The translations under genes were made by a program, and so were the position numbers. This document shows, in pieces, positions 4,336 through 22,184 of a stretch of 39,192 bases of DNA (its first letter is position 1; the number at the start of each line of letters is the position of its first letter). The notes below the pieces were generated by a model that was given only the letters and a program-made list of their open reading frames with translations, did no database searches and was not told the origin of the DNA. Origin of the DNA: a virus; the IMG/VR virus record IMGVR_UViG_3300026488_000006, positions 1 through 39,192 of that record. One strand, 5' to 3'.

Positions 4336-5565
4336 CTAGAGCCACTGCCCCAACCGGTGGTTTTTGGCCACATCGCCAAGCTCCCGCTCAAACCTCCGCC
4401 TTATGATTTCGCAGTAGTCCGGATTCATCTCGATACCGACCCAACGCCTACCGAGCTTCTCCGCCACGACGAGAGTAGTCCCTGCTCCAGCAAACGGGTC
4501 GAGGACTACGCCGTCCTTCGGGCAAGCGACCTTAATTAAGAGCTCCGGGACGTCTGGCGGGAAGACCGCAAAGTGGGCGTCCTTGAACGGGCGGACGTTT
4601 ATTTGGATAACATCATTCGGGCGGACTTTGTAATCCCCCTCTCGTATCTTGCGGGCTATTCCTTCGTTGATTTCTCTAGAGCTCCTCGGATAAAGTTCGC
4701 CCTTGTTGTGAGGGCCAACTCTCCAGCGATACTTGGCTCGTTCCCGGGTCAATTCTGACGGTTCTGGTGCGACGGCTTTCCAATCAAAATAATACTTCGG
4801 CCTCTTCGTGAAGTGGAAGATGTACTCCCAGCTGTGGCTGAAGCGGTCTCTGACTGATTCGGGCATGGCGTTACCCTTCGTCGTCCTGTCTTTGTAAAAG
4901 TGCACTTTCTTTGCCCAGATTATTTTCTCCCGCAGAATCCAGCCCTCGTCGTAAACCATCTTGACGGCGAAGAGTTCAGGCACGAGAGCGAGGGACTTTT
5001 TCTTTAGTCCATCTGGCCACGCAACCTTTGGGACGTTGCTCCTCCCGTTCCACTTCGGGTCGTTGTCGTTGCCGAGACCATAACCGTGCCCACCACCAAC
5101 CCACGTGTCGTCAATGTTCACGAAGAGGCTCCCCGTCGGCTTGAGGACACGCTTGACCTCACGGAAAATCTCGACGAGGTGCTCGACAAACATCTGAGGA
5201 GTCGGCTCAAGGCCGAGCTGTCCATACCACGCCCCGCACTTCTTACAGATGAGGGCCGTCCGCTTGTTATACTTCTTTATCCGGGTCGTGCCCCTCGCTC
5301 CGACCACTTCGTCCTGCTTCCCGCGGACGTTGTTTCTGTTCTCGTGCTGAAGGCCAACTTCTTGCCCCACCCACTCGTGGTCGCAGTCCGGGTCGCCTCC
5401 AAAGACGGTGAACGTGGCGTCGCCGTAGTCCCTCTTGGCCCAATAGGGTGGAGAAGTAATTACCACATCCACGCTCTCATCAGGGAGATAGCGGAGCACT
5501 TCGAGGGCGTCTCCACAGTAGAGCCTGCCGAGCCGGGTTTCGAAGTAGGGCTCCATTCCAACCAT
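4336..5565 (-). CDS. DNA methyltransferase, beta-class amino-MTase (N6-adenine or N4-cytosine)
   Basis: Motif IV SPPYW near the N-terminus and motif I DPFAGAGTT near the C-terminus (order IV then I is the beta class). Track ORF 4336..5586; likely start is the ATG at 5565 after RBS GAGGTGGTG. Confidence 0.85.
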   Translation of the reverse strand: MVGMEPYFETRLGRLYCGDALEVLRYLPDESVDVVITSPPYWAKRDYGDATFTVFGGDPDCDHEWVGQEVGLQHENRNNVRGKQDEVVGARGTTRIKKYNKRTALICKKCGAWYGQLGLEPTPQMFVEHLVEIFREVKRVLKPTGSLFVNIDDTWVGGGHGYGLGNDNDPKWNGRSNVPKVAWPDGLKKKSLALVPELFAVKMVYDEGWILREKIIWAKKVHFYKDRTTKGNAMPESVRDRFSHSWEYIFHFTKRPKYYFDWKAVAPEPSELTRERAKYRWRVGPHNKGELYPRSSREINEGIARKIREGDYKVRPNDVIQINVRPFKDAHFAVFPPDVPELLIKVACPKDGVVLDPFAGAGTTLVVAEKLGRRWVGIEMNPDYCEIIRRRFERELGDVAKNHRLGQWL

Positions 5566-5576
5566 CCCGCACCACC

Positions 5577-6314
5577 TCACAGCCACCCCTTCTCGGCCTC
5601 AGCCTCCAGGAAGTCAAGAACCGAGCGGAGGCACTCCTTCAGCTTGGCAACCTTCGCCCGCCTCTGCTGGACCTCCTCGTCGCTCTCGCCGGCGCGCTTC
5701 AGCGTGAGCGTGTCGAGCATCAGCCTGAGGTACTTCGCGTGGGTCCTTGCCTCGTCGAGGCTGTCGCCGTGCACCTGGATGAGGGACTGTCCGTTGAACA
5801 GCACCGCGTCGGCGCCGAAGCGGTAGCCCGCGATGACCACCTCGTCCACGCCCCTGATACCGCTGTCCGGGTCGGCGAAGACCAGGAGCGCGACGGCGCG
5901 GTCGGTGCGGGTGTGTTCATCGAGCTCGACCGGCCCGTGACTACCGGTTAAGCGAAGGCGGTAGATGACTTTCCCGGGCACGGCCACGGCGACGGCCCTG
6001 TCGAGCTCGAACGCCGGGTAGCCGGCCAGCTGGAGCGCCCTGGCGAACACGCGGTTTGGCCCGAGGAGCGTCCAGCCGTACTCTGGGTCGCCCCACTCCT
6101 CGACGAGGCCGGACAGGGACCTTATGAGCTCCCCCAGCGCCTGCTTCGTGAGCGGTAGCCTGTTCTCCTGCCAAAGCGAGCGGAGCTTTTCGGCCAGCTC
6201 GGCCACGCTCTCGCTGTCGGCCACGGCGTCCGCTATGTCGTGGTAGAGCCGGACGAGCTCCGCCCTGTCGGGAATCACTATGTGGTCGAGCTCGTAGCGC
6301 GCCACCTCACGCAC
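5577..6314 (-). CDS. Hypothetical protein (245 aa) immediately upstream of and overlapping the methyltransferase
   Basis: Co-oriented, 3' end overlaps the MTase start; no convincing nuclease motif seen. Confidence 0.55.
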   Translation of the reverse strand: MREVARYELDHIVIPDRAELVRLYHDIADAVADSESVAELAEKLRSLWQENRLPLTKQALGELIRSLSGLVEEWGDPEYGWTLLGPNRVFARALQLAGYPAFELDRAVAVAVPGKVIYRLRLTGSHGPVELDEHTRTDRAVALLVFADPDSGIRGVDEVVIAGYRFGADAVLFNGQSLIQVHGDSLDEARTHAKYLRLMLDTLTLKRAGESDEEVQQRRAKVAKLKECLRSVLDFLEAEAEKGWL

Positions 6315-8749: not shown

Positions 8750-9313
8750 TCAAAGAAAAGGTTGGCGAATGTAAAGGTAGTGGAGCTCGGCTCCTTTATG
8801 AGCCCCAGCGCCAGACTCATTGGCTCCATCCCAACCGAGAATTTGCCTCAGCTTCTCGGAGTCGCCCCAAATGCCCTCGTTCAGAGCCACAGTTCGTATC
8901 TCGGAGGCCTTCTTCAATAGCTTGTCGAACGAGATGTTGCGCTCGCAGACGTGGAGCACGATTTCGCCACCGGCGACCCTTCTGAACTCAACGACCCTCG
9001 GCTCGTTGCTTCTGTCTTGTAGTAAATACTTGCGGTACACCTTGCCATCCTTGGTGAGCTCGATGCAACACTTGTGCCCCCACTGGTATTCGTCGAGCAC
9101 GTACTCTTCAATCCTCGCGTCGTCAGTCTCGTACTGGTTCCAGAACCTTACTAAAGACTCTGCTTTTTCCCTGTCTGAGAATACGGCCAGTATGCGGTAG
9201 TCTGAATACTCGCCCGCCGTGACCACGTACACTTTCTTAGCCGGCGCTTCATTTCTGTTTAGAACTGGGGTGCCGTTCGCACCCTCCCCGACGAGAACCC
9301 GGTACCCCGGCAT
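8750..9313 (-). CDS. Hypothetical protein (187 aa)
   Basis: ATG at 9313 after GGTGATG; TATA-like TTCTTAAATATT upstream on the minus strand. Confidence 0.5.
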   Translation of the reverse strand: MPGYRVLVGEGANGTPVLNRNEAPAKKVYVVTAGEYSDYRILAVFSDREKAESLVRFWNQYETDDARIEEYVLDEYQWGHKCCIELTKDGKVYRKYLLQDRSNEPRVVEFRRVAGGEIVLHVCERNISFDKLLKKASEIRTVALNEGIWGDSEKLRQILGWDGANESGAGAHKGAELHYLYIRQPFL

Positions 9314-9392: not shown

Positions 9393-9539
9393 TCAAGAAG
9401 AGGTGCCCGAGTCGAGCTCGTCAATCTTCCGCTTTACCCAAACGCTCGCCTTCCACCAGCCGTAGCTTATCAGCCCGAGCAGGAAAATGTAAAAGAGGCG
9501 CTCGGCGAGGTTGTTTTTTCGCTCCGGTTGCCCCGGCAT
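9393..9539 (-). CDS. Small putative membrane protein (48 aa)
   Basis: Not in the ORF track. RBS GAGGTGG overlaps the upstream stop; ATG at 9539; one hydrophobic helix (LFYIFLLGLISYGWW). Confidence 0.3.
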   Translation of the reverse strand: MPGQPERKNNLAERLFYIFLLGLISYGWWKASVWVKRKIDELDSGTSS

Positions 9540-9549
9540 GCTCGCCACC

Positions 9550-10803
9550 TCACTTGGAGCTTAGTGCCTTCGCCACGCTGACAGCCACGACGGCCCCAAC
9601 GCCGAGCATGATGAAGTTCGCCATCTTGTCCAGGGCTGAGCCACCGCCACCACCGCCTGAGCCACCGCTCGGCTTGGTCGCGTTGGCCACGTCGGTCACG
9701 TGCTTGAGGAGCTCCTGACAGGCGGGGTTGTTCGGGTCGCTACACGCGCTCGTCACGAAGTTGATGTACTGGCTGAAGGCCTCGGCGCGCTTCTTGTCGG
9801 CCTCGGCGTAGATTGCGTCCACCCTGACGACCTTGACCGCGAAGGCGATGGCTATGACTATCACCGCCAGCGCCACGAGGACGTAAACGACCGGCATGAG
9901 CTCCGGCCCGAGCGAGCCCGCCTTGACCACGGGCACGAGCACGGTGTAGGTGCCGTCATGGTTCTTGACGATGTACGGCCCACGGAGCTTCTGCCCGGCG
10001 TAGGTGTACTCGTAGGTCGTGTCAACAACGAACCCCAGGGGCGCCACCATCTTGGCCGTCTCCTGCACGGCCCTGGCCAGCACGTCCTCCATCTTGGGGC
10101 ACTTCTTGATGATGCCCAGCACTTTCTGGCACTCGTCCTCGACCGTCACGGCCAGCACGGCGCGGTTGGAGTTCAGCAATACGCCCGGCGGGGTCATTAG
10201 CGACGCCTGGTAAGCGACCCAGTAGTAGCCACGCGGGATTGTGACCCCGAACTTCTGCTCGAACTCCTGTATTGTCTCCTCGGGCACGCTCGCGTTGGGG
10301 AGCCTCAGCCTGGACAGCATGACGCCGTTCTGCCAGTCGGTCACCTGGTCCTTGAGCTCGCGCTCCGGAGGCTGGTTTGGCCCGGCGTACTTGAAGCCGA
10401 TGACCGTCGAGTAGTCCACGAAGAGCACTGGCACGGCGTCAATGACGTTCACGCAACCCACGTCCGGCACCGGCAACACGGGGCCATGAGCGTTGGGGCT
10501 CTTCTGACCGCACACCTCGTGGCTGAAGTACTGGTACATTGCGAGCCACAGGTTGGGGCTCGTCCAGAGCGCCACGTCCCCATTCTCGCCGTGGATGGTT
10601 TTCTTTTTCCAGCTCGGCTTGGCCTCGGGAATCTCGCCGGTCTCAACGTCGAACGGTACGTATGTGGCCCGGTAAGTGCCCTGCCACGCTCCCCGTGCGA
10701 GGAGCACCCAGAGCGCGTAGGTCAGCTTGTCCATCGGCTTTGATGGGTCAACCGGCGTCAGCCCGACCGCCTCGACGTAGCTCATCCTGTCCTTGTAGCT
10801 CAT
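9550..10803 (-). CDS. Putative membrane-anchored virion/envelope protein (417 aa)
   Basis: RBS GAGGTGA before ATG; internal hydrophobic helix; Gly-rich linker (SGGSGGGGGGS) followed by a C-terminal transmembrane anchor. Confidence 0.6.
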   Translation of the reverse strand: MSYKDRMSYVEAVGLTPVDPSKPMDKLTYALWVLLARGAWQGTYRATYVPFDVETGEIPEAKPSWKKKTIHGENGDVALWTSPNLWLAMYQYFSHEVCGQKSPNAHGPVLPVPDVGCVNVIDAVPVLFVDYSTVIGFKYAGPNQPPERELKDQVTDWQNGVMLSRLRLPNASVPEETIQEFEQKFGVTIPRGYYWVAYQASLMTPPGVLLNSNRAVLAVTVEDECQKVLGIIKKCPKMEDVLARAVQETAKMVAPLGFVVDTTYEYTYAGQKLRGPYIVKNHDGTYTVLVPVVKAGSLGPELMPVVYVLVALAVIVIAIAFAVKVVRVDAIYAEADKKRAEAFSQYINFVTSACSDPNNPACQELLKHVTDVANATKPSGGSGGGGGGSALDKMANFIMLGVGAVVAVSVAKALSSK

Positions 10804-10818
10804 CTCTCGTCACCTCGG

Positions 10819-11682
10819 TTATTCCTTGTGGGTGGCCTTCGCGAGGGCGTAGGCCGTCACCAACCCGGCTCCAAGGAGCGCGAGGCCGGCTAAACTATTT
10901 TTTTCCTCCGTCGTGTTGACCCCGGGGCCGGGCCCCGGCCCGGGCCCCTCTGCCGGCTTTATCTCGACAGTTATTGTATTCTGGTAGGCGAGCCGGTCAT
11001 CGACATAAACTTTCACGACTGCCTGTATCGTCCCCTTTGCGTTCTTTGGTATTTGGATGGGTAGGTTAAAGCGGGCTCCATAGGCGCCCTTTGTCGTCAC
11101 CGGGCCGGACTTCACGGTTCCAAACGGCGTGTCCATCTCGGCGAGGAACTTGTGGGTGTTGTAGTCATTCAGCACGCGGGCGTTCACAGTGACGGTTAGG
11201 GTTCCACCCGCCTTGACGGAGCTCGGCGCATTTATGCTCACGTCAACCTTTGGTAGCTGGTACTCGCCTGCCTTGACCTTTGCGCTGGCTATTAGTGTCC
11301 CGCTCGGCACGTCGGCAGGGCTGGCGAAAGCAACGATGGTAACGCCTTCCTCCGGCATCGTTATGTAGCCAACGGTCGCGATTTGGCACTTGTTTAGCTT
11401 AACGGCGCCGAGCTTTGTCCCCTTCTTGTTGCTCGCCGTGATGTAAGCATCCGGCCCTGTCCCCTTAGCGTACCAAACCTCAATGGTCACCGGGAAACTC
11501 TTCCAAATGGCCCAGTCCGGCACGCCGACGATAACCGGCACCTTCTGCCCCGGAGGTGCCGAGGCTGGCACATTGAGTATCTCTTCGGGGCACGGCTGGG
11601 GGGTCGGTTCGGGGCCGGCCTGGCTAACGTTCACCCCAAAGGACTTGGTATCAACAACGTGCCACTCCGCCATCTCCATCAC
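10819..11682 (-). CDS. Putative surface protein (about 285 aa) with C-terminal TM anchor
   Basis: N-terminus MAEWHVVDTKSFGVNV is paralogous to the N-terminus of 12185..12496; PGPGPGPG linker then hydrophobic anchor. True start is probably the third ATG (about 11673). Confidence 0.6.
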   Translation of the reverse strand: MMEMAEWHVVDTKSFGVNVSQAGPEPTPQPCPEEILNVPASAPPGQKVPVIVGVPDWAIWKSFPVTIEVWYAKGTGPDAYITASNKKGTKLGAVKLNKCQIATVGYITMPEEGVTIVAFASPADVPSGTLIASAKVKAGEYQLPKVDVSINAPSSVKAGGTLTVTVNARVLNDYNTHKFLAEMDTPFGTVKSGPVTTKGAYGARFNLPIQIPKNAKGTIQAVVKVYVDDRLAYQNTITVEIKPAEGPGPGPGPGVNTTEEKNSLAGLALLGAGLVTAYALAKATHKE

Positions 11683-11686
11683 CCCC

Positions 11687-12136
11687 TCAACTAAGCAATA
11701 ACAACATGGCGCCGGCGATTAGCCACCAGGGAACGTTCCCTTCCTCCTGAGCTTCCGCCTGGGCCGTTGCCCCCTGTTTGGCGGTGGGCCCGAGGATGGT
11801 CACCGCGAACGTCGCCGTGCCGAGTAGGCGCCCGTACTTGTCCCTTACTTCGAGGGTAAACGTTCTCTTACCGCCCGGGACTGTTCCCTTACACGCAATT
11901 GGATACCCTGTCACCGTGCGTCCGGGAACGACCGTGCACCCCGGCACTTGGACTGCTAAACGGACGATGGTTGGTGGCTGGAGGTCCCTTATCGGGCCCG
12001 CGCGCCACTCGTAGCCCATGCCCTTCAACACGAGGACTGCGTCGAAGGGTACGGGCGCGCCCTTAATCTTGACCCAAACTGTCATGACTTCGCCCGGCCT
12101 ATAAATCTGCTTCTCGGGTATGGCTTCAACTTCCAC
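11687..12136 (-). CDS. Putative membrane-anchored protein (149 aa)
   Basis: RBS AAGGAGGTGAT before GTG start; C-terminal hydrophobic anchor (VPWWLIAGAMLLLLS). Confidence 0.55.
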   Translation of the reverse strand: MEVEAIPEKQIYRPGEVMTVWVKIKGAPVPFDAVLVLKGMGYEWRAGPIRDLQPPTIVRLAVQVPGCTVVPGRTVTGYPIACKGTVPGGKRTFTLEVRDKYGRLLGTATFAVTILGPTAKQGATAQAEAQEEGNVPWWLIAGAMLLLLS

Positions 12137-12184
12137 AGAGCATCACCTCCTTGCGTGCCGGGGTGCACGGCTCCGCACCCCGGC

Positions 12185-12496
12185 TCAGTAGTAGGCGCTC
12201 AGCGTCACGGTTCCGGTGTAGTACCCCGGCTTGGACGGTGCCGTAAGGTCGAAAGTCAGCTCGACTTTTTGCCCGGCCCTGTATGCTGTCCCGTTCTGTG
12301 AGTATGTCTTGCCGAAGATGTTTATGGTGGCGCTGACTGGCACCGGCCTGTCGGTCGGTATCGCCCACACCGTCACCGTAAACTTCTCCCCGGCGCGCAC
12401 TTCCTTCGGGACGCTTACACCCCATTTTATGTTTGGCGCGGGCATCTGGACGTTCACCCCGAAAGTTTTTTGCCCAACAACGTGCCACGTTGCCAT
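12185..12496 (-). CDS. Hypothetical beta-rich protein (103 aa), paralog of the N-terminal domain of 10819..11682
   Basis: RBS AAGGAGGTGGTG before ATG; shared N-terminal motif MATWHVVGQKTFGVNV. Confidence 0.55.
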   Translation of the reverse strand: MATWHVVGQKTFGVNVQMPAPNIKWGVSVPKEVRAGEKFTVTVWAIPTDRPVPVSATINIFGKTYSQNGTAYRAGQKVELTFDLTAPSKPGYYTGTVTLSAYY

Positions 12497-12538
12497 TCCA
12501 CACCACCTCCTTCCTTTTTGTCGTTATGATTTTAACCC

Positions 12539-12850
12539 TTATTTGAGCGCCTGGATTAGATACTCAATGAGCGTGATAATTGCCCCTAAAACTGAAATTG
12601 CGCCCCACAAGCGGTTCCTATCCCGTTCGAGGCGCCGGATGCGCTCCTCGTGGTCTTTGAACTTTTCGTCGTGCTCGCTTTTGATTTCCCCAATCATCCG
12701 GGCCACAGAGTCGTTGTTCTCATCTATCTTCCTGCTGAGTTGCGTTAGCATTTCTTTCACCCACTCCATATCCGTGGACAACTTTGCCATAGCAACGGCG
12801 AGCCCTTCCTTCGATAGCAAGCTGGCGTCATAATTGGTTTTGTCATCCAC
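12539..12850 (-). CDS. Coiled-coil protein with C-terminal TM helix (103 aa)
   Basis: RBS GGGGGGTGA before GTG start; heptad-like charged region; hydrophobic C-terminus. Confidence 0.5.
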   Translation of the reverse strand: MDDKTNYDASLLSKEGLAVAMAKLSTDMEWVKEMLTQLSRKIDENNDSVARMIGEIKSEHDEKFKDHEERIRRLERDRNRLWGAISVLGAIITLIEYLIQALK

Positions 12851-12864
12851 CCCATCACCCCCCG

Positions 12865-13155
12865 TTAATCCCAGTCTTCCATTTCAGACCGCTTGTCATT
12901 AACGAGGACCTTATGGAGGGCATCATGGAGCTGGGCAACGTCCAACTTGAGCGCCTCAACGTCGCCAACAAGCTTCCGCACTTGTTCCTTCAGGAGCCTA
13001 ACGTCTTCTTCGAGGTCTCTGATGGACTTTTCCAACGCGGTGACGCGCTCCTCCTTAACGGCCCTTCCTGTTTTTTCCATTAACCACTTTGCCCCAATGA
13101 GGGCGAGCGCCCCACCGGCCAACGTTGACACGAAAGCGCCGAGGTCAAACGCCAT
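12865..13155 (-). CDS. Small membrane protein with N-terminal TM helix and coiled coil (96 aa)
   Basis: RBS GAGGTGAAGGAG before ATG; N-terminal hydrophobic segment. Confidence 0.5.
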   Translation of the reverse strand: MAFDLGAFVSTLAGGALALIGAKWLMEKTGRAVKEERVTALEKSIRDLEEDVRLLKEQVRKLVGDVEALKLDVAQLHDALHKVLVNDKRSEMEDWD

Positions 13156-13519
13156 GCTCCTTCACCTCGATGGTGTACTTGTGGGCGAGCCACCCGTGCC
13201 TTACCGTGATTGACACGCGCCTCGCGTTGCACTTCATAGCGGTGACCCACACCGTGGTTTTCTTGGAGACCTCCAGCTCGATTGAGCCGGAGCCCCTGAC
13301 CTGAGAGCTCCCCTCCACCAGCACTATGAAGTCTGAGCCCGGTACTTCTATCTTGACCTTCACGGGCGTGAAGTACGGCTCAATCTGGGCGCCGAAGATT
13401 ATCGCACCGCTCTGGCTCTTGATTAGCTTTCCGTCGTCGAGCCCGAGCAATGTGACGCTCGCCGGCCCCTTGCCAAGGATGAAATATAGGATTTGGCGGA
13501 GGAGCTCACGCCACCGCAT
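13145..13519 (-). CDS. Hypothetical protein (124 aa)
   Basis: ORF tiled in operon; RBS weak. Confidence 0.45.
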   Translation of the reverse strand: MRWRELLRQILYFILGKGPASVTLLGLDDGKLIKSQSGAIIFGAQIEPYFTPVKVKIEVPGSDFIVLVEGSSQVRGSGSIELEVSKKTTVWVTAMKCNARRVSITVRHGWLAHKYTIEVKEHGV

Positions 13520-13525
13520 ACCGCA

Positions 13526-13996
13526 TCACGGGAATGTTATTGTGACGTAGATGTCGAGCAAGATGGTGTTGTCCTTCGTTATGGCGGGGTCAATGTTCAC
13601 GTGGTTGATGAGCGTGCCGGTGGTGTAGTCGTTGCCGTCCGTGTGCTCATAGATGCCCGCCTCGGTATAGGTGTAGCCGTTCGCCTCCTCGGGCATGTAG
13701 CGGACGTAGTACTGCACCGTGTTGTTGCTGACCGTCAGCTGTCCGGTCTTGGCAGTCGAGGCGACAGGCTGGAAGAGGCCGGTGTCGCTCTCGCTGGGCG
13801 TCCCGGAGCCGGTACCGAGGACCAGCATCCAGTTTGAGGAGCCCTGGCTGTTGCCCCACGCCTGCGCCAGTAACTTCTTGAACTCCGTCGTTAGGACGTT
13901 CTTGCGCTCCACCTCGTCCAACACGGCGCCCGTGCGGGCGTCCCTTATGACGAACTTCCAAACGGCCTTGGCTGTGGCGGTTTCCCCAACCTTCAC
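13526..13996 (-). CDS. Putative structural protein (156 aa), paralog A of an adjacent pair
   Basis: RBS AAGGAGGTGAT before GTG; shares motifs with 14009..14713 (VLGTGSGTP.SD.TGLF, RYMPEE.NG.T.TE.G.YE, KD.T..D.YV.I). Confidence 0.6.
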   Translation of the reverse strand: MKVGETATAKAVWKFVIRDARTGAVLDEVERKNVLTTEFKKLLAQAWGNSQGSSNWMLVLGTGSGTPSESDTGLFQPVASTAKTGQLTVSNNTVQYYVRYMPEEANGYTYTEAGIYEHTDGNDYTTGTLINHVNIDPAITKDNTILLDIYVTITFP

Positions 13997-14008: not shown

Positions 14009-14713
14009 TTAAACTTGGTTCACGTAAATGCTTACGTACACGTCAATCATCTTCGTGTCGTCCTTCTCAATCGGGGACGGCAACATAGCGTGCTCGAAGA
14101 GCTGGCCGTTCTGGTACTCCTGTGGCGGGATGTAGTGGTGCTCATAGACCGGGTTCCCGCCGACGGTCGGCGTGTAGCTGTACCAGTGGAACGGGATGTT
14201 CTCATAGACGCCGACCTCCGTAATGGTTTGACCATTGAGCTCCTCGGGCATGTAGCGGGCCCAGTAGCGCCAGCCGTTGCTCAGCTGTTCGAGCTTTGCG
14301 TCGGCGCCCCACGGCAGGGGTGTGATGACGAGCCTCTCGCCGACCTTCTCGTTCTGGTTGTTGTAGATGTCCTCAACGGAAATGCTGAGGCCGTCTTGAC
14401 CCTCGCCACGGGCCGATGCGTTGATGGGGTTGAACAGTCCGGTGTCGCTCACGTCCGGCGTCCCGGAGCCGGTGCCGAGGACGATTGCCCACTGCGGGCG
14501 CCTGTAAAGGGAGATGTCGTTCGGGCACTGATACGTCTCGTCGGGCTTCTTGTACTCCGCGACGAACTTGCCGGTGAGCCAAGCCTGCTGGAGTAGGGCG
14601 ATGCCGGCCGAGGTGATAACGTTGTCCGTCTCCACCTTCCAGCGCTCGCCGGTCTCAACGTCCGTGACCACGACCATCACGTGCCCCTTGATAATGGCGC
14701 CGTTAAGTTTCAT
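14009..14713 (-). CDS. Putative structural protein (234 aa), paralog B of an adjacent pair
   Basis: RBS GGGGGTGGTTGA before ATG; conserved blocks shared with 13526..13996. Confidence 0.6.
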   Translation of the reverse strand: MKLNGAIIKGHVMVVVTDVETGERWKVETDNVITSAGIALLQQAWLTGKFVAEYKKPDETYQCPNDISLYRRPQWAIVLGTGSGTPDVSDTGLFNPINASARGEGQDGLSISVEDIYNNQNEKVGERLVITPLPWGADAKLEQLSNGWRYWARYMPEELNGQTITEVGVYENIPFHWYSYTPTVGGNPVYEHHYIPPQEYQNGQLFEHAMLPSPIEKDDTKMIDVYVSIYVNQV

Positions 14714-15348
14714 TCAACCACCCCCAGCTCCTTAAGGATGTCTGATAGGGTTTTAACCCGTCTGACCAATCCGATGCCCTTTATTCTGTGACGTATCATC
14801 CAGATGTTGATGAGGCGAGATTTTGTTTCTGGTGGGAGCTGTCCGAGTGTCGTTGTGGTGGGCACGGATTTTCCAATTTTTCTTGCTATTCTTTGTGACG
14901 CTTTGGCCCCGAGTATTTTCTCCCCGTTGATATAAACCCCCTCTGTGCGCAGTTCTACCTTCGAGAAGTCGTCAGGTATGTCGTCTATGCTGAATGGGTC
15001 ATTTGGGTCGTTGTGTTTTAGCATCAAGCTGGTTTGGAACAATACATCGTCGCGAGGGAAGATGTATTGTTCTTCGTTTGGAAGGAGTTCGAGTATTGCC
15101 CGGTCAATATTCTTTATGCCTTCTATGACTTCGACCCCGGGAACATTGCGGTACTGTTCAATATCCCTGTCGTCAACTACGAGACGTATCTCGTAGCCGT
15201 CTTCGAGGTTCTGCACTAATGTGTAGAGGCCGGGGTCTCTTGGATTGATGCCACCTGCCCTTTCTCCTGTTTGGAAGTTCACTTTTATTTTCAGGGCCAC
15301 ATATCTTTTTAAGTTGCGTAAGTCATTCAACAACACCACCTCCTTCAC
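14710..15348 (-). CDS. Hypothetical protein (about 205-212 aa)
   Basis: Start codon ambiguous: RBS AGGAGGTGGTG lies inside the track N-terminus, so the true start may be a TTG near 15330. Lower-GC sequence. Confidence 0.5.
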   Translation of the reverse strand: MKEVVLLNDLRNLKRYVALKIKVNFQTGERAGGINPRDPGLYTLVQNLEDGYEIRLVVDDRDIEQYRNVPGVEVIEGIKNIDRAILELLPNEEQYIFPRDDVLFQTSLMLKHNDPNDPFSIDDIPDDFSKVELRTEGVYINGEKILGAKASQRIARKIGKSVPTTTTLGQLPPETKSRLINIWMIRHRIKGIGLVRRVKTLSDILKELGVVE

Positions 15349-16835
15349 TTACCGCCTATTCCTTGAGTGTCTGACCCAGGAGCTCCGCCTGATTTAACTA
15401 TACTAAAGTCTGAGGGGGACAGTTGGTATAATCTACCGGAGTTATCAGAGTACCAGATAATTTCGGGGCTACCACCTATACCGCGAGGCGTGGATGTGGG
15501 CGCAGATGCGTTGCGTATTATACTAAAATCGTCAGGGGATAGTTCGTATATTGTTGAGGAACGCTGTCCTTTGACAGTCCACACTGTTGAATAATCACCC
15601 CCTGCTCCACCAAGGTAAGATGTTAAACTTTTACTCCTTAGGATAGATAAATCTTGAGTTGATACTTCGTACACATTGCCATTGTTCCAATTGGAGGCCC
15701 AAAATGTGTTGTCATCTCCTCCGGCGCCGGACATACCAATGTATGAGCTACTAAGATGGTTACTGCGCGTCAAGCTGAGGTCTTGGGGTGAAATTTCGCA
15801 AAGATAAGCAAGACCACTGGCAAACCAAATGACATCTTTGTTACCACCTATTCCTTGTGGGTAGGCATAGGGACTGGGTGTTGACCTGACTACTGAAAAA
15901 TCGTTGGGTGAGAGTTCATATATTGTATCATTTCCATCGTCAACGTGCCACACTACGTGTTGGACAACTGGTTCTGTTGAGACCGAGATTGAGTCCACGC
16001 TCGCCTGCTCCTCGGCCAGCGTGCTGAGGGCGCCCTTCTGGTACAGCAACCTGTCGCTGGCGTACACTGAGTTGGCGAAGGCCCTAATGACCAGCGTCTC
16101 CCCGCCCTGCGGAACGTAACCGACAGGTATGTCCTCACTGGCCTGTACTTCGCTTATATCGTAGCTCTCGGCTTCGGAGAAGGTAGCTGATACACCGCCA
16201 TCCACGACCCCAACTTCGCTGACCGAGGAGGTCACGAGGGAAGCAACGTTGTGCGAGCTGGAATCGTTGGTCTCTGCAAGCTCGTCGAACACGAGTTTGA
16301 TGACTTGGGCTTGGTTTATGAGAACGTTTTCCTGTGCGCTAACGGTCTCAATGAGGGTGGGGGTGAGTATTTGGCCGGCCCATACTTCCACATTGGCCTC
16401 GTCGAGGAGGCGCTCGTTTATGGAGGATGTTACACGGTCGGCCGTTTTTGTTGCAACGGAGTCAGTGGCCCCTTGAGTGTCGCCGGCCGTCCGATATTTT
16501 CTCAGCTTGGTATCATAACTTAGGCCGTCGGTGCTGGCCTGCTCCTCGGTCAGTGGCCTGATGACCAGCGGTCTCTCGACTGCCGTCGCGCTGTCGTTAA
16601 TCAGGTACTCAAGCTCCCTTGCCACCACCTCGTCGGCTATTACGGCGATGGCGTCCTCCGGGACGGCGGTTCTTTCTCTGACCGTGTATGCGTACCTGCC
16701 GTGGATTATCACGAGCGTGGTGTCTCCGCTGTGGTGGACCTCGGCCTCGACGGCCTCGCTGAGTAGGTCAATTAACTTCCTCGGCCCGAATCTTGTACTG
16801 CCGACCTTCAGCACCGACGGCCAGCGCCTCCTCAT
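15345..16835 (-). CDS. Repeat-containing protein (496 aa) with beta-propeller-like C-terminal repeats; candidate receptor-binding protein
   Basis: RBS GGGTGGGGTGAAGT before ATG; at least 5 repeats of about 45 aa in the C-terminal half (pattern IYELSP.DFS..RS ... GIGG ... W); AT-richer than neighbours. Confidence 0.6.
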   Translation of the reverse strand: MRRRWPSVLKVGSTRFGPRKLIDLLSEAVEAEVHHSGDTTLVIIHGRYAYTVRERTAVPEDAIAVIADEVVARELEYLINDSATAVERPLVIRPLTEEQASTDGLSYDTKLRKYRTAGDTQGATDSVATKTADRVTSSINERLLDEANVEVWAGQILTPTLIETVSAQENVLINQAQVIKLVFDELAETNDSSSHNVASLVTSSVSEVGVVDGGVSATFSEAESYDISEVQASEDIPVGYVPQGGETLVIRAFANSVYASDRLLYQKGALSTLAEEQASVDSISVSTEPVVQHVVWHVDDGNDTIYELSPNDFSVVRSTPSPYAYPQGIGGNKDVIWFASGLAYLCEISPQDLSLTRSNHLSSSYIGMSGAGGDDNTFWASNWNNGNVYEVSTQDLSILRSKSLTSYLGGAGGDYSTVWTVKGQRSSTIYELSPDDFSIIRNASAPTSTPRGIGGSPEIIWYSDNSGRLYQLSPSDFSIVKSGGAPGSDTQGIGGK

Positions 16836-16838
16836 ACT

Positions 16839-17150
16839 TCACCCCACCCACATGACGTAAATCTTCTGTGCGTTTTGCCCGCTGACAACGTAAACCTTTC
16901 CGAGGTTGTCAATCACGATGTCCACGCTCTCACCGGGGTCGAGGGCGAACCCGGTCCCGGTACTAACCGAGTCGTCGAAGCCGATGTAAACGGCGTCCGT
17001 GTTGGCCTTGTCGGCCTTGATGGTGACCATCTTCACCTCCAGCGCCCCGAGGGCGGTCGGCGTCGTGCTGACTGTGAACTGAAAGGTCCCGCCCTTCGAG
17101 GGCGAGCCCAGGAGGTCTTTCATTGCGCGGTAGCTAATCATGGCGACCAC
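16839..17150 (-). CDS. Small beta-rich hypothetical protein (103 aa)
   Basis: ORF tiled in operon; stop overlaps the RBS of the next gene. Confidence 0.5.
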   Translation of the reverse strand: MVAMISYRAMKDLLGSPSKGGTFQFTVSTTPTALGALEVKMVTIKADKANTDAVYIGFDDSVSTGTGFALDPGESVDIVIDNLGKVYVVSGQNAQKIYVMWVG

Positions 17151-17563
17151 CTCACCTGTCTGCCCCCAACCTCAAGGGTCGCCACCACGTTGGAGCTTGG
17201 GCTTTGGTTCACCTTGACGTAGAGCGCGAGTGCTTTAAGGCCAGTTAGGGCTCCAAAGTCCGAGGCGTCAAGGAGGAGTGTGCCGGTGGTGTTCTTAGCC
17301 AGCAGGGGCGTGCCACCCTCGTCCGTCGTGGCTATGACGTTGCCCTCTGTACCGTCTGGGAGGGTAATACGCACATACGAGACATCGAGTAGGTAGCCGT
17401 CATCAGGCTCGAAGGTGGCGGTAAACTCTGACCCCACCGGTGAGCCGGCTGGTATAGTCAGCTCGACCTTAGAACCCTTTGGTATTGGCTTGTAGGAGCT
17501 GAAGGTCGGCCCAAGCGCCCGCTTGAGTCGGTCATAATCAACACCTATCGAGCGCCCAAGCAT
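17138..17563 (-). CDS. Hypothetical protein (141 aa)
   Basis: ORF tiled in operon. Confidence 0.5.
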   Translation of the reverse strand: MLGRSIGVDYDRLKRALGPTFSSYKPIPKGSKVELTIPAGSPVGSEFTATFEPDDGYLLDVSYVRITLPDGTEGNVIATTDEGGTPLLAKNTTGTLLLDASDFGALTGLKALALYVKVNQSPSSNVVATLEVGGRQVRWSP

Positions 17564-17574
17564 TGCTCATCACC

Positions 17575-18159
17575 TCACGGCAGGAACCCGGTGTACTGGC
17601 TCGGTGCCACCGGCGGTAAAGTAACCGGCTGTCTGGGCCGTTCCGGCTGTCTGATTGGCTGGTTCAGGAGCTGGATTATCGTTTCAATGCCAAATATGAC
17701 CCTAAGTGAGTCAACGAAGACCCCGATGTCGGTCACTTCGAGGATTAGCACGTCGTAGTTTACCGTAGCATCGGTGGAACCTGGGACTGCCGTAATTGTC
17801 AGCGTGCCCTTTAGGCTCAAAGGTGGCTGGGGCGTGAACTCTGCTGTGTATTTGCCGGCCGGGTCGTAGTTGGCTACGTAGGGCATGTTGCTCTTGTCAA
17901 AGTAGCCAGCGTCGTAGAGTTCCTGCGGTATGAGGGAGAACTGGAGAGACTGTCCGCTCTCTTCGGGGTCGTAGGATATGCGTAGGCCCGCATCTGCTAC
18001 ATCGGTGCTGACGCGGGCGCTTATGAGCCAACCGAACTCGCCGTTTTCACTTTCGTAAAGTTCTTTTGGGGCGTCGTCGGCGTTTAGTTTCTCGCTACCG
18101 TTCACTCTAACCCAATTCCATCCATTGAGGATGGGGAGTAACCCGAGTATGTCCACCAT
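17575..18159 (-). CDS. Hypothetical protein (about 194 aa)
   Basis: Track ORF 17575..18231; start moved to ATG at 18159, preceded by GGTGGGAGG and directly after the upstream stop. Confidence 0.5.
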   Translation of the reverse strand: MVDILGLLPILNGWNWVRVNGSEKLNADDAPKELYESENGEFGWLISARVSTDVADAGLRISYDPEESGQSLQFSLIPQELYDAGYFDKSNMPYVANYDPAGKYTAEFTPQPPLSLKGTLTITAVPGSTDATVNYDVLILEVTDIGVFVDSLRVIFGIETIIQLLNQPIRQPERPRQPVTLPPVAPSQYTGFLP

Positions 18160-18163
18160 AGTA

Positions 18164-18727
18164 TCATTCCTCCCACCAGTCAACGCGGATGCTAATCTGA
18201 TTGGCGTTTGAGCTTTTGTTGATGACTTCAAAGAGGACGCTGTGTCCCGGTGGTATCACGAAGGCTACGAGGCCCTCGTCCATACCGCCGACCGCTTTGT
18301 TGCCAGAGCCTCCAGGGATGACCTCTTCTCCCACCACAGTACCGCCGGAGTAGTTGGTCACGTCAATGATGACCTGTGCCACGCTCGTTGCAGTGGAACC
18401 GACCCGGAACGGGACGGGCTGTATCTGGGTCCCGCCTTGGAGTGTGGGGTCAATGACGTACTTAATCCACGCCTGGTCTGTCGTGCTCATCTTGGTGGTC
18501 ATGATGTGGATAGTTTTACCGCTCCCGGCCGGGTTGATGATGGTTAGGTCGGCAGTCGCTCCGCTGGAGATGTGGGGCCAAAGCTTTGAAACGAAGAACG
18601 CCTTGTCCTCGCTGGCCTTTATCTGGTACTGGGTGTAGGCGATGGTGTGGTCTGTGTCAGCTTTTGTAATCTTGGCGTTGATTTCTGCCGTGTTGGGGTC
18701 GCTCCTAAACACTCCCGTTACGGTCAC
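18164..18727 (-). CDS. Hypothetical protein (187 aa)
   Basis: ORF tiled in operon. Confidence 0.5.
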   Translation of the reverse strand: MTVTGVFRSDPNTAEINAKITKADTDHTIAYTQYQIKASEDKAFFVSKLWPHISSGATADLTIINPAGSGKTIHIMTTKMSTTDQAWIKYVIDPTLQGGTQIQPVPFRVGSTATSVAQVIIDVTNYSGGTVVGEEVIPGGSGNKAVGGMDEGLVAFVIPPGHSVLFEVINKSSNANQISIRVDWWEE

Positions 18728-18731
18728 CCCC

Positions 18732-19046
18732 TCAGATTAGTTCGTAGGTGACCGTAACGAGCACCGTACCACTTGCACTTAGGGAGCCAACGAGTTTGAA
18801 TCCCCTATCGAGGTCGTAAACGCCCCAGCACCCGTCAGCCATCTCGCTCTGGCCGGACTGGAGCACGATGGTGTCAACGTCCTTGCTGAGCGAGCCGTCC
18901 GGGCTGACTTGCTTTAAGCTGACGTTCACGGCGGACGAGCCGGTGTTGACGAACTTGACGTAGCGCACCCTGACCTTGCGGTGCTTTGGCGGGACTATAA
19001 GGTCAACTTCGGTCGTGTCGGTAAGGGTTTTGTGCACCGTCGGCAT
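18732..19046 (-). CDS. Small beta-rich hypothetical protein (104 aa)
   Basis: ORF tiled in operon. Confidence 0.5.
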   Translation of the reverse strand: MPTVHKTLTDTTEVDLIVPPKHRKVRVRYVKFVNTGSSAVNVSLKQVSPDGSLSKDVDTIVLQSGQSEMADGCWGVYDLDRGFKLVGSLSASGTVLVTVTYELI

Positions 19047-19049
19047 TCA

Positions 19050-19709
19050 TCACACCCCCGTACCCATTAGCTCGTTCCACCTCTTTGATGCGTACTCAAA
19101 TAGGTCGTCTCCAACGAGCTTTTTAAGCCACATCGGGGCCTCGTATGGCTCAAGGAAGGTGTATATCTTGCAGGCCTTCTTGCCCTCGATGAGGGAGTCA
19201 ATCTTCTTCGTGTCCCTGATGACGCGGTAGGAGTACTTGGCGATGTCGAAGCTGAGCATAGCGTAGATGTCCTGGCCACTTTGGTTGCTTATCTTAAAGC
19301 TCGGGTAGAGGTCGAGGAAGGTTATTAGCTCAGCCCTAGCGTCCGGGTCCTCGAACGGGCTTATTATGCCGTCAATCCACTTTGTCTTGCCGGGCACTGA
19401 ACGAGTGCCACGGAGGCTGTACCTGGCGACCCTTGGCGGAAAGTCGAGGTAAACCTCCGCCTCTTCTGGCGCAACGCCGACGAAGGTGTGCAGTATGAAC
19501 CTCTCGCGCTCGGGCTCAAGAACTCTATCGTTCGTCCCTGGGAAGGTTGGTTCAATCCAGTCGGTGGTCTTGCCGGCCTGAACCACGCCAACCTCGTACG
19601 GCTCGTAGCTCATTATTTCTCTACCTGTCACCCTAAAGAACACGGGGCCCTCACGGAAGGCCACCGCGAGGTAGTGTCCGGGCTTAAGGAATTCTGGCTT
19701 TTCGCGCAT
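19050..19709 (-). CDS. Hypothetical protein (about 219 aa)
   Basis: Track ORF 19050..19724; ATG at 19709 after RBS GGGAGGTGGTGA; TATA-like TTATTTATAA about 95 nt upstream on the minus strand. Confidence 0.5.
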   Translation of the reverse strand: MREKPEFLKPGHYLAVAFREGPVFFRVTGREIMSYEPYEVGVVQAGKTTDWIEPTFPGTNDRVLEPERERFILHTFVGVAPEEAEVYLDFPPRVARYSLRGTRSVPGKTKWIDGIISPFEDPDARAELITFLDLYPSFKISNQSGQDIYAMLSFDIAKYSYRVIRDTKKIDSLIEGKKACKIYTFLEPYEAPMWLKKLVGDDLFEYASKRWNELMGTGV

Positions 19710-19831
19710 TTCACCACCTCCCAAAGTTATAACTGCCGAGAACAGTGTTCCCGGCCTTCTCTCTCTTCGGCCGTCCGGTCACCTTTGCCACCTCCGTTAC
19801 GGAGTTATAAATAAGGAAAAGATGTTAGGCT

Positions 19832-20515
19832 TCAGAAGTGGGTCTTGAAGAACCTACCGCGGGCGACGGTGAATCCAAGGAGCTTCAGCTCGCCGGTGGT
19901 CGGGCTGGAGCTGTTGGCGTCCGGGCTGTGAACCTCAATCTTGTAGTAGTCCTTCGGAACAATGGGGACGCTGTTAAAGTTCCAGACGGCGACGCCGTTC
20001 CTGTTGTCCTTTATGACGGCGTTGCTAACGTCAATCGGCAGGAGCTGTCTCTGGCCGACGGCGAACCTAATGCCGTCAATCCTGGCGGTGACGTCGGTGC
20101 CGTCGTAGAAGTCAACGATACCGAAGATGAGGTATCCGGCGTCGTCGTGTGCGGTGCCCTCGGCGAGGGTCTTCCACTCGGCGTCGAAGCTGACCTTGAA
20201 CCTGTCGCCGTAGGCAGTGACGCCGGCGCCGAGGGTGCTGTTCCCGCCGTTGTCAACGAAGTGGCCTGGCCTAAGCGGGGTGAGGCCAATCTCCATGTCT
20301 GACGCAACCTGGCCACCGAACTTGGCGCCACCGAGGCTGTGCTTGACAGCCTCAACGAAGCCCCTTATCTGCCTCTTGTAAGTCTGGAGGAGCTCGTAGA
20401 TGACGCCATCCTTGGGGCCGAAGAGGTTGTCGAGCTGGGCGTTCAGCTTGGCCTCTTCCTTCGGGTCGAGTGGAAGGGTGTTAAGGTCGGTGTCAATAGA
20501 CTCGAACCTAACCAT
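19832..20515 (-). CDS. Hypothetical protein (227 aa), candidate virion protein
   Basis: RBS GGGGGTGAAGAGCA before ATG at 20515. Confidence 0.55.
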   Translation of the reverse strand: MVRFESIDTDLNTLPLDPKEEAKLNAQLDNLFGPKDGVIYELLQTYKRQIRGFVEAVKHSLGGAKFGGQVASDMEIGLTPLRPGHFVDNGGNSTLGAGVTAYGDRFKVSFDAEWKTLAEGTAHDDAGYLIFGIVDFYDGTDVTARIDGIRFAVGQRQLLPIDVSNAVIKDNRNGVAVWNFNSVPIVPKDYYKIEVHSPDANSSSPTTGELKLLGFTVARGRFFKTHF

Positions 20516-20529
20516 TGCTCTTCACCCCC

Positions 20530-20967
20530 TCAGAACAAATACTCCTCCTCTTCCTCTACTGGAGCCGGCTGGGTCTCAACCGGAGCCGGGGTGACGGCCA
20601 CGGTAATCGGCTGGGCGACGGGGGCGCTCATAGCGACCTTGTTCCAGGTGAGGCCGAGGTTGCTGGCGACCTTATCGGCGAGCTGGTCGGGCGAAACCTT
20701 GTCGTTAACCCACTCCCAGATTGGCGGGAACAGCGCACCGAAGACAGCGTAGCCCCTCCACTCGGGGTGGCCCATCTTGTCAGCGACCCAGCTCATCAGT
20801 CCGGCGCCAAGGACGTTTCCGAAGTAGCCGAGCCACTTGTTGCCGTTGCCGGCCCTCTCAAGGACGCCACCGATGACGGCGCTGGCGAGGCCGGAGACGG
20901 TCGCGTATCCGAGGCCGACGACGGTCTTCTCCGTGAAGATGTTCTTTATGTCCTCAACAAATCCCAT
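20530..20967 (-). CDS. Putative membrane protein (145 aa) with acidic C-terminal tail
   Basis: Gly/Ala-rich hydrophobic segments; C-terminus EEEEYLF. Confidence 0.55.
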   Translation of the reverse strand: MGFVEDIKNIFTEKTVVGLGYATVSGLASAVIGGVLERAGNGNKWLGYFGNVLGAGLMSWVADKMGHPEWRGYAVFGALFPPIWEWVNDKVSPDQLADKVASNLGLTWNKVAMSAPVAQPITVAVTPAPVETQPAPVEEEEEYLF

Positions 20968-21442: not shown

Positions 21443-21649
21443 CTCAACACCACCTCCAGTGGTTCTTTTTGTTGCCGGGTTTCGGCCCCCGGTAGGGCTC
21501 CCGGTCTCGTTCTCTGTGTATGTTTTTTGCAAAAGAGATATTTATGTCTTTCGCTCCGCAAAACCCGCCCTTTGCAGAAAGCAATGTTTCGCATGTGGTT
21601 GGTCAACGGTTGAGTTTACAAATGTAAAAGAAAAGGTTGCGTGGCACAG

Positions 21650-22174: not shown

Positions 22175-22184
22175 AAGCACCACC

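Follow-up and report, generated by a model that had tools for sequence, protein, structure and literature searches.

A conserved block of membrane-anchored and Ig-like proteins in a putative archaeal virus from hydrothermal vents: a possible attachment module

What might a series of small proteins with hydrophobic ends, encoded directly behind fibre-like genes, do for a virus-like element of hydrothermal vents? This question is raised by positions 9393 to 13519 of IMG/VR record IMGVR_UViG_3300026488_000006, which we analysed over its whole length of 39,192 nucleotides (the window). Little is known of how viruses of hyperthermophilic archaea attach to and enter their hosts, and for deep-sea vent viruses of this lineage no entry machinery has been described. 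An earlier note, written from the letters alone, had read the region as a probable envelope or spike module. Our comparison with related loci delimits a conserved block of eight genes, and we give an even chance to the reading that its products sit tail-anchored in the membrane of a lipid-containing virus particle, serve attachment or entry, and are joined by strand docking.

The eight-gene block and its conserved core

The block consists of eight tightly packed genes (13519..9393), all on the minus strand, that form the distal part of a long operon of structural appearance. It encodes the following proteins (aa, amino acids; nt, nucleotides; TM, transmembrane segment; Ig, immunoglobulin):

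13145..13519, minus strand: 124-aa protein, first gene of the block; weakly hydrophobic N-terminus, no Pfam or PHROG hit
12865..13155, minus strand: 96-aa protein; N-terminal TM (residues 2-20, hydropathy 1.70), then a coiled coil of ~70 residues
12539..12850, minus strand: 103-aa coiled-coil protein; coiled coil, then a C-terminal TM (residues 81-99, hydropathy 1.97); tail-anchored
12185..12496, minus strand: 103-aa soluble protein; N-terminal 16-residue tag, then an Ig-like beta-sandwich ending directly after a PS.PG.Y.G.V strand
12449..12496, minus strand: tag of this protein, MATWHVVGQKTFGVNV
11687..12136, minus strand: 149-aa protein; Ig-like body without the tag, Ala/Gln/Glu linker, short hydrophobic C-terminal tail (residues 135-149, nt 11690-11734)
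10819..11673, minus strand: 284-aa protein; tag, Pro-rich linker, two Ig-like regions, (PG)n stalk, TM, basic end
11626..11673, minus strand: tag of this protein, MAEWHVVDTKSFGVNV
9550..10803, minus strand: 417-aa protein, the conserved core of the module; alpha/beta N-domain of ~300 residues, TM1, helical Cys-containing loop, Gly-rich linker, TM2
9829-9897, minus strand: TM1 of the 417-aa protein (residues ~303-325; Kyte-Doolittle 3.21 at residues 305-323)
9571-9633, minus strand: TM2 of the 417-aa protein (residues ~391-411)
9393..9539, minus strand: 48-aa single-pass membrane protein (LFYIFLLGLISYGWW...), always downstream of a 417-family gene

TM segments were called from Kyte-Doolittle hydropathy windows together with conservation in homologues. 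On a strict count, four of the eight block genes encode an anchor compared to four of the 38 other genes (Fisher p = 0.02); on a relaxed count, six of the eight do, compared to five of 38 (p = 0.001). The anchors that the earlier note had anticipated are thus present by hydropathy, including those of the two small TM/coiled-coil proteins it had pointed out, one C-terminal (12539..12850) and one N-terminal (12865..13155), and the anchors are conserved in every homologue found. Its description of three consecutive proteins with a Gly- or Pro-rich linker and a single C-terminal helix fits the 284-aa protein (284 aa from the ATG, 287 aa if the GTG at 11682 is the start), which ends in PAEGPGPGPGPG, about 10 residues, the TM (residues ~259-279, nt 10837-10899) and KATHKE. 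The description fails for the 417-aa protein, which has two TMs, and for the 149-aa protein, whose linker GPTAKQGATAQAEAQEEGN is rich in Ala, Gln and Glu rather than Gly and Pro. The tail of the latter, VPWWLIAGAMLLLLS, comprises 13-15 hydrophobic residues without a basic end and passes with short hydropathy windows alone; it resembles the PWW...TM tail of a relative in L012 (L numbers denote related loci).

The C-terminal end of the 417-aa protein consists of PSGGSGGGGGGS, a hydrophobic helix and a Lys-rich tail, and its internal TM (residues 305-323) is far more hydrophobic than this C-terminal helix. Owing to the second TM inside the protein, the anchor is a two-TM hairpin and not a single C-terminal helix. 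A profile search of 1.84 billion representative proteins identified 24 proteins of this family at E <= 0.001, 12 of them below 1e-30, and five relatives are 49-56% identical to the 417-aa protein. The layout is the same in 21 of 21 aligned members, namely an N-domain of ~290 residues and a strong TM, then a helical segment of 60-110 residues and, after a linker, the second TM with a basic tail. The helical segment often carries paired Cys, as CX3C in one branch. The family is known so far from metagenome contigs alone, and every traceable source is a hydrothermal vent or vent sediment; two profiles found no relatives in 185,579 GTDB species genomes. No match of the 21 members to PHROGs was obtained, and the modelled fold of the 417-aa protein was unmatched in PDB and BFVD (best BFVD E 0.02, TM-score 0.12).

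Wherever flanking sequence is available, the gene downstream of the 417-family gene encodes a TM protein of 38-48 aa with the motif FY(I/L)(F/L)LLGL.(T/S)Y.WW, and the upstream gene encodes a protein whose C-terminal part combines a Pro/Thr-rich stalk with a TM and terminal basic residues. Homologues of the 284-aa protein, all with a Pro/Thr stalk, TM and basic end, lie directly upstream of every 417-family gene examined. This trio (Ig-stalk-TM protein, 417-family protein, small TM protein) is also present in L008, L009, L011, L012, L013 and L015. Homologues of the 48-aa protein were found in the six related loci L008-L013 (blastp E = 4e-10 to 6e-6), in L018 (E = 9e-14) and, by inspection, in L015.

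In L018, whose homologue of the 417-aa protein is just ~25% identical, the entire order recurs. The L018 genes encode proteins of 130, 112, 75, 82, 321, 54, 417 and 38 aa, which correspond in turn to the 124-aa protein, the tagged Ig protein, the TM-coiled coil and coiled coil-TM proteins, the Ig-rich protein, a protein running from tag to TM, the 417-aa protein and the small TM protein. Pairwise homology between the window and L018 was detected for the 124-aa, both 103-aa (Ig and coiled coil), the 284-aa and the 48-aa proteins (E = 4e-13 to 9e-5). The 124-aa protein and its 130-aa homologue (blastp E = 4e-13) occupy the same syntenic position, and the N-terminal TM is clear in the latter. The 75-aa protein is the positional counterpart of the 96-aa protein and has the same layout; blastp did not pair them. 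Homologues of the coiled-coil protein 12539..12850 were found in L008 (E = 7e-11) and L018 (E = 1e-9). Because the whole order recurs in L018, the block spans 13519..9393 and is larger than the region 9393-13155 of the earlier note, and the synteny kept in relatives with such a divergent 417 homologue indicates that the block is under selection. Its gene calls were made independently on six public contigs.

We found no N-terminal signal peptide in the block proteins after checking start codons, upstream room and hydropathy. A signal-like N-terminus is likewise lacking in all 21 members of the 417 family, whose N-termini are hydrophilic, as are those of the relatives' Ig-type proteins. No signal peptide is hidden upstream, as at most a few codons separate the start of each open reading frame (ORF) from the stop before it. 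The absence of signal peptides implies that the proteins are tail-anchored, or hairpin-anchored in the case of the 417-aa protein, and that their large domains are initially cytoplasmic; these would become external only if the membrane is acquired inside the cell. This topology, which the earlier note did not mention, is a constraint on every functional model.

None of the module proteins scored above threshold in Pfam, PHROGs or NCBIfam. In tblastn searches of 50,697 phage and archaeal-virus records, neither the 417-aa protein nor a concatenation of the 284- to 124-aa proteins (E <= 0.1) had a match; a concatenation of 14710..20967 was also without match in these records. Nothing meaningful came from PDB sequence searches, which covered two capsid candidates and two conserved proteins besides the 284-aa protein and the profile of the 417 family, and no sequence similarity of the module to any deposited virus was found. 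The block families are explained by no known family. Among the subthreshold matches, that of 12539..12850 to Pfam DUF7201 (E = 1.2e-5) reached 25.5 bits, under the 27-bit gathering cut-off, and was weak or faint in the relatives too, that of the 149-aa protein to DUF7382 (E = 0.005) fell below the cut-off, and the 96-aa protein gave generic coiled-coil hits. Ig-type profile hits for the 284-, 149- and 103-aa proteins are weak, and the 149-aa protein is weakly similar to the Ig body of the 103-aa protein (E = 0.005). An Ig-like nature, as in adhesins, is supported for the body of the 103-aa protein and, through these weak hits, for the 284- and 149-aa proteins.

The 16-residue N-terminal peptide

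The near-identical N-termini that the earlier note had described for 10819..11682 and 12185..12496 were readily recovered, with 12 of 16 residues identical between the tags of the 284-aa and 103-aa proteins (pairwise BLASTP E = 8e-8). The similarity is restricted to these first 16 residues and the start of the next domain, so that the shared unit is a peptide and not a duplicated N-terminal domain as that note had assumed; its conservation points to docking and not to a recent domain duplication. An estimate by eye from the alignment puts the identity of the two genes over the 48 nt that encode it at roughly three-quarters, and several of the differences are synonymous, indicating that selection acts on the peptide. 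A recent duplication as the origin of the shared N-terminus was rejected, as the peptide is kept in distant lineages and its DNA has diverged at synonymous sites.

Five copies of the tag were found in three lineages. In four of them it stands directly after the start Met, the fifth (L020) being cut at the contig end. Three kinds of body follow it: an Ig domain, a linker with two Ig regions and a TM, or a stalk and TM alone. The 112-aa Ig protein of L018 starts with MGVVDLGTKTFTVRV. The 54-aa protein of the same locus, whose gene immediately precedes that of the 417 homologue, has no parts other than MAVIDLGTRTFTVTV, a Pro/Thr stalk, a TM and RRRK, and its N-terminus is similar to the tag of the 284-aa protein (E = 9e-5). 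In L020, ..IFNLGTKSITVEV is followed by a linker, a TM and RRRG (at least 53 aa), again upstream of a 417 homologue. Judged by these sequence contexts, the tag is an autonomous, portable module, and its role as a conserved N-terminal docking peptide common to soluble and anchored subunits is well supported. A degenerate DNA pattern of the tag gave no match in IMG/VR. In a model by AlphaFold2 (AF2), the tag is not confidently packed on its own Ig-like domain (predicted local distance difference test, pLDDT, ~30).

In L018 (1527-2667), and also in L019, the 54-aa gene begins 10 nt behind an Ig-rich gene for a 321-aa protein without anchor and lies in a different frame. From their sequences, the two look like a split version of the 284-aa protein of the window. 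With an upstream extension of the second ORF, the overlap between the two would be 44 nt. A fusion by frameshifting is less parsimonious than separate translation, which is favoured by the position of the tag right after the start Met in four of four intact copies and by the same split in a second sample (L019).

By sequence inspection, the tagged Ig domains (the 103-aa protein of the window, the 112-aa protein and the C-terminal domain of the 321-aa protein of L018) stop directly after the PS.(K/A)PG.Y.G.V strand. In the 284 family, the homologous domains are complete: after this strand come a turn, a last strand (DGKL.AT..V.V.V), a stalk and a TM. This last strand resembles the tag (ATRTFPIKV and ATRQVKVTV vs GTRTFTVTV). 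With a hidden Markov model of the last strands alone, the 54-aa tag of L018 was the top non-training hit among 1305 six-frame ORFs (E = 0.09), and the reverse test gave E = 3.9. That the tag may be the missing last strand, supplied in trans, is a suggestive hypothesis.

A possible role in attachment, and its alternatives

Conserved anchoring, Ig-like heads on stalks, exchangeable fibre genes as neighbours and glycosyltransferases downstream together fit attachment or entry proteins of a lipid-containing particle. The proteins would be made in the cytoplasm without signal peptides and inserted post-translationally via their C-terminal helices, or via the TM hairpin in the 417-aa protein, with the large domains on the cytoplasmic face. 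They would then enter a lipid membrane that the particle acquires inside the cell, so that the cytoplasmic face becomes the outside of the particle. Such intracellular acquisition of a membrane has reportedly been observed for some crenarchaeal viruses that are enveloped or contain a membrane. An attachment or entry complex would be built from the 417-aa protein together with the Ig-like proteins and their Pro/Gly/Thr stalks (284, 149 and 103 aa), and it may also hold the exchangeable fibre or tailspike proteins encoded just upstream. In this complex, the 16-residue peptide would be a docking beta-strand through which the soluble Ig subunit and the anchored subunit bind one and the same acceptor, probably by supplying an Ig-like domain with the last strand that it lacks. 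Presence in the virion, topology in the particle, the attachment role and strand docking are what we infer from the conserved features.

Membrane-anchored adhesins are a known kind of viral protein; what is new are these families, the absence of signal peptides, the unmatched fold of the 417-aa protein and the portable N-terminal strand. The module defines several families without annotated relatives, including a two-TM protein of ~400 residues. It also offers a testable rule, namely that tail-anchored adhesins without signal peptides imply a viral membrane acquired inside the cell. Strand docking, if true, would extend a principle of pilus assembly to virus particles, and the natural "strand plus anchor" unit would be a minimal tag with which Ig-like domains could be tethered to membranes at high temperature.

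A more specific and rather doubtful proposal is that a fibre or spike is held by donor-strand complementation. Each Ig subunit lacking its last strand would receive, in trans, the 16-residue strand of the subunit that follows, and a strand-stalk-TM protein would fasten the chain to the viral membrane. Candidates for the acceptor are the 103-aa protein of the window, the 112-aa protein of L018 and the C-terminal domain of the 321-aa protein of L018. The fastener may be the 54-aa protein in L018, whereas in the window the strand is fused to the anchored 284-aa protein, and insertion of all parts may proceed from the cytoplasmic side, with no secretion and neither a chaperone nor an usher. Donor-strand-complemented fibres occur in bacterial chaperone-usher pili, the Sulfolobus 'threads' and archaeal bundling pili. 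The module shares with them an N-terminal extension with alternating hydrophobic residues before an Ig-like domain seemingly without its last strand, and parts that resemble tip, polymer and terminator (acceptor-only, donor plus acceptor, and donor-only). In contrast to these fibres, the block is without Sec signal peptides, no chaperone or usher family was found in the window, and complementation is deduced here from sequence only. We know of no counterpart of the proposed terminator, a membrane-anchored strand-only protein, in donor-strand fibres, and to our knowledge no donor-strand-complemented fibre or spike has been described for any virus.

Several observations weigh against an attachment module. 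No capsid protein, portal, terminase or packaging ATPase was recognised with Pfam, PHROGs, tblastn or PDB sequence searches, so that the virion type and even the viral nature of the element are themselves deduced. Apart from the fibre-like genes, neither the block proteins nor the rest of the operon match a known virion protein. The envelope or spike reading of the earlier note is partly supported, by the conserved anchors, the fibre-gene neighbours, the viral and archaeal look of the element and the Ig-like bodies. In a particle that buds outward, tail-anchored domains would face inward, unable to bind a host. As to strand docking, the lineage of L008, L009 and L021 is entirely without the tag, and the similarity of tag and last strand is not statistically significant in either direction. 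Both structure models were built on shallow alignments, of 21 and 3 sequences. Lastly, the block follows the fibre genes, which is the position of phage lysis cassettes, and it gives weak PHROG hits to a holin (phrog_689, E = 0.0026) and an Rz-like spanin (phrog_739, E = 0.011).

The latter two points would suit a module for egress or remodelling of the host membrane, in which the 48-, 96- and 103-aa proteins and the TM-hairpin protein act late in infection in the manner of holins and spanins or of the pyramid protein PVAP and are not virion components. The 96-aa protein has a PVAP-like layout (N-terminal TM and about 70 helical residues), and the lack of signal peptides suits action from the cytoplasmic side. 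We nevertheless regard this explanation as unlikely, because the holin and spanin hits all lie below threshold and are of a sort that any coiled coil gives, the concatenated query from the 284- to the 124-aa protein, with both coiled-coil proteins in it, remained unmatched in the phage and archaeal-virus records, no endolysin, lysin or peptidase domain is encoded nearby, and Ig-like bodies on Pro/Thr stalks as well as a conserved 300-residue domain are foreign to known lysis systems. The tail-anchored topology that follows from the missing signal peptides would also allow proteins that face inward in a budding particle or sit in an internal membrane of the PRD1, STIV or SPV1 type, where they would serve as matrix or as linker between membrane and core or shell. 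Very basic proteins (21008..22219), several small beta-rich proteins and a conserved Gly-rich hydrophobic 145-aa protein are encoded upstream in the operon, and the packaging ATPase was not found, which is reportedly also the case in SPV1. Such an arrangement seems quite improbable to us, as no jelly-roll or other capsid protein was identified, Pro/Thr and Pro/Gly stalks with Ig-like heads are typical of exposed adhesins, and the adjoining fibre or tailspike genes need an external attachment point.

A non-viral origin, with the proteins residing in the membrane of a cell or vesicle and serving transfer or adhesion for a plasmid or vesicle-forming element, would account for the lack of recognised capsid and packaging hallmark genes and for a circular replicon with helicase, methylase and DpdA. 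We consider it very unlikely: the two fibre genes have homologues in betalipothrixviruses, the product of another gene resembles a protein of a haloarchaeal tailed virus, relatives carry tailspike-like genes and one of them is listed in IMG/VR, neither a conjugation ATPase nor a relaxase was found in the window, and no copy was found in the 185,579 species genomes.

For the attachment reading, the nearest analogues by architecture are the adhesins of spindle-shaped Thermococcales viruses with a ConA-like jelly-roll and TM. These viruses (PAV1/TPV1 relatives; 'Osirisviridae', 'Sethviridae') are described in PMC12934983 as having ConA-like beta-sandwich adhesins with flexible linkers and C-terminal TM helices, whose genes are interleaved with those of small TM proteins and lie beside a very large, poorly structured ORF. 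Their genomes are circular, with exchangeable AEP (archaeo-eukaryotic primase)/UvrD-type replication modules, a G+C content of 45-50% and a size of 14-34 kb (PMC12934983). The element shares with them the habitat and, in architecture only, beta-sandwich domains on flexible linkers that end in a C-terminal TM. Interspersed small TM proteins, a very large ORF and a circular genome with a UvrD-type helicase are parallels as well. It differs in that the module is without ConA or LamG Pfam hit, no AAA ATPase or recognisable hairpin capsid protein was found, the G+C content is ~58% at 39 kb, and the anchors are single helices and not bundles. Membership in any of the 19 Thermococcales virus families was rejected, since gene content, G+C and size are unlike those described in the parts of the source considered here (PMC12934983).

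Other known systems resemble single aspects of the block. The element shares one fibre-like gene family, and only that one, with betalipothrixviruses (ORF164 of Acidianus filamentous virus 9, AFV9, with homologues in AFV3, 6, 7 and 8); the module is without counterpart there, and the element is circular while those genomes are linear. Lipothrixviruses are enveloped and acquire their envelope inside the cell. The SIRV2-type alpha-helical capsid proteins that, together with a linear genome, mark Lipothrixviridae and the realm Adnaviria were not matched by sequence. Pleolipovirus spikes (HRPV-type VP4/VP5), type I proteins made with signal peptides, are membrane-anchored ectodomains with a C-terminal TM that serve attachment and fusion of enveloped archaeal viruses. 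The block proteins are similar in having membrane-anchored domains with a C-terminal TM and differ in the missing signal peptide, with no sequence (tblastn) or fold (BFVD) similarity. PVAP of Sulfolobus viruses (STIV C92, SIRV2 P98) has about 90-100 aa, with an N-terminal TM followed by helices. The 96-aa protein is like it in architecture only (TM at residues 2-20, then coiled coil), and sequence homology was not found with the concatenated query that includes the 96-aa protein (phage and archaeal-virus records, E <= 0.1), nor was there such a PHROG. A holin/spanin lysis cassette is not supported, the family matches being subthreshold (E = 0.003-0.01) and no endolysin adjoining. Substrates of archaeosortase or exosortase (PGF-CTERM, PEF-CTERM) were rejected, as there is no Sec signal peptide and no conserved C-terminal motif; most anchored proteins share a TM and basic end without such a motif. 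An NCBIfam scan (E <= 1) gave no CTERM sorting-signal match on any C-terminal tail, and the sole CTERM-named hit, PACE-CTERM-PROT (E = 0.29, 9.7 bits vs a 110-bit cut-off), concerned the Ig-like body of the TM-less 321-aa protein of L018. Archaeosortase signals, pleolipovirus spikes, holin/spanin, PVAP and DUF7201 thus each fail at least one defining test.

Neighbouring genes and genome context

The genes flanking the block and the other annotated features of the window and its relatives are:

13526..13996 and 14009..14713, minus strand: two paralogous tail-fibre-like genes, directly upstream of the block and outside it (phrog_18275/5417/4176, Pfam Phage_tail_fib)
8750..9313: DUF7336 protein
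138..1802: UvrD-type helicase
4336..5586: N6/N4 DNA methylase
36321..37271: DpdA homologue (Pfam DpdA, E = 1.9e-20)
L008 6946-9032, L021 1267-5039, L011 1990-4618: tailspike-like replacements
L008 11940-13186, L009 2705-3947, L015 1601-2632: glycosyltransferase/DUF7557 regions

The two fibre-like genes are 30.6% identical to each other (E = 4e-23) and 28.7-31.5% identical to ORF164 of AFV9 and its relatives (tblastn E = 7e-16 to 2e-13). In L008, L021 and L011 they are replaced by proteins that resemble, by eye, beta-helix tailspikes. Genes between the block and the conserved upstream core are thus swapped among relatives, which is the behaviour of host-range cassettes. Downstream of the module, three relatives carry a glycosyltransferase and a small DUF7557 protein where the window has the DUF7336 protein. 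Two tailspike-like proteins of L021 share the N-terminus MEFRRPYPNSGV and a C-terminal domain of ~60 residues, and a DUF2341 protein is among the exchanged genes of L011, outside the module. At 15345-16835, the window encodes a 496-aa protein with a Ser/Thr/Glu-rich N-terminal half and a C-terminal half of five ~41-residue repeats (IYELSP.DFS..RS....GIGG), which is absent from L008 and L021. Its five repeats are suggestive of a beta-propeller head, and a role as an exchangeable protein for receptor binding is probable.

The first and last 127 bases of the window (1-127, 39066-39192) form an exact direct terminal repeat, and the public record of the element is a 39,206-base MEGAHIT k141 contig (ENA ERZ27262635 k141_279034). 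A 127-bp terminal overlap in a k141 assembly indicates that the genome is circular (or terminally redundant), with ~39.07 kb. The gene 38473..39159 extends into the repeat. The element, with a G+C content of ~58%, is present in six vent-type metagenome contigs; besides that of the public record, five assemblies contain fragments with identical proteins (JGI 3300026382, 3300026484, SRR7968109, SRR7968106 and ERZ27262631). Its closest long relative, L008, is a 33.8-kb IMG/VR uncultivated viral genome (UViG) from an East Pacific Rise sulfide chimney metagenome and the only relative found in IMG/VR; a scan of JGI metagenomes gained one further locus. The sample labels of other relatives (JOHN19, REYS20, DOMB18) we take, on our own reading, to be vent studies. 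The element looks viral and archaeal or hyperthermophilic, and the host is presumably a hyperthermophilic archaeon.

A long array of minus-strand genes extends from 27761 to about 4336. No tRNA genes were found in the window. The DpdA homologue suggests that the DNA of the element may carry a 7-deazaguanine modification; further dpd or queuosine-pathway genes were not recognised in the window. The product of 18164..18727 (187 aa) matches phrog_5335 (E = 1.4e-5) and is 29.6% identical (E = 2e-4) to a hypothetical protein of the haloarchaeal tailed virus Halorubrum virus HATV-2 that is encoded between portal and prohead protease. It is the sole link of the element's core genes to any tailed virus. 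A tailed-virus identity was rejected, as terminase, portal and HK97-type candidate are all without match.

At the start of the structural operon, a giant ORF of 1679 aa (22722-27761) matches, at residues ~160-485, a domain in primase-annotated ORFs of Faecalibacterium/Clostridium phages and a Methanofastidiosa virus (E = 1e-9 to 2e-16); the remainder is coiled-coil and rich in Glu and Lys, and the ORF recalls the large 'SMC3-like' ORFs of Thermococcales spindle viruses. It is followed by three conserved proteins (21008-22715), two of them very basic (174 and 189 aa) and one helical (176 aa), the latter being the most conserved gene with 83.5% identity in L008. They are without match in PDB sequences or phage records and are possible nucleoproteins. 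Next to them, the Gly-rich hydrophobic protein of 145 aa (20530-20967; 54% identical in L008) has two or three hydrophobic helices, an acidic Pro/Ala-rich tail and no family match, and is a candidate membrane or hairpin-type capsid protein. Two ORFs directly upstream of the UvrD-like helicase (1804-3419; 317 and 221 aa), conserved in L008 and without Pfam hit, could be the primase part of a replication module of AEP and superfamily 1 (SF1) helicase, as reported for vent archaeal viruses. Outside the block, a 293-aa protein without signal peptide, encoded on the plus strand at 33886-34767, carries a hydrophobic C-terminal helix (PVGGSAIWLALPVALLMFARG).

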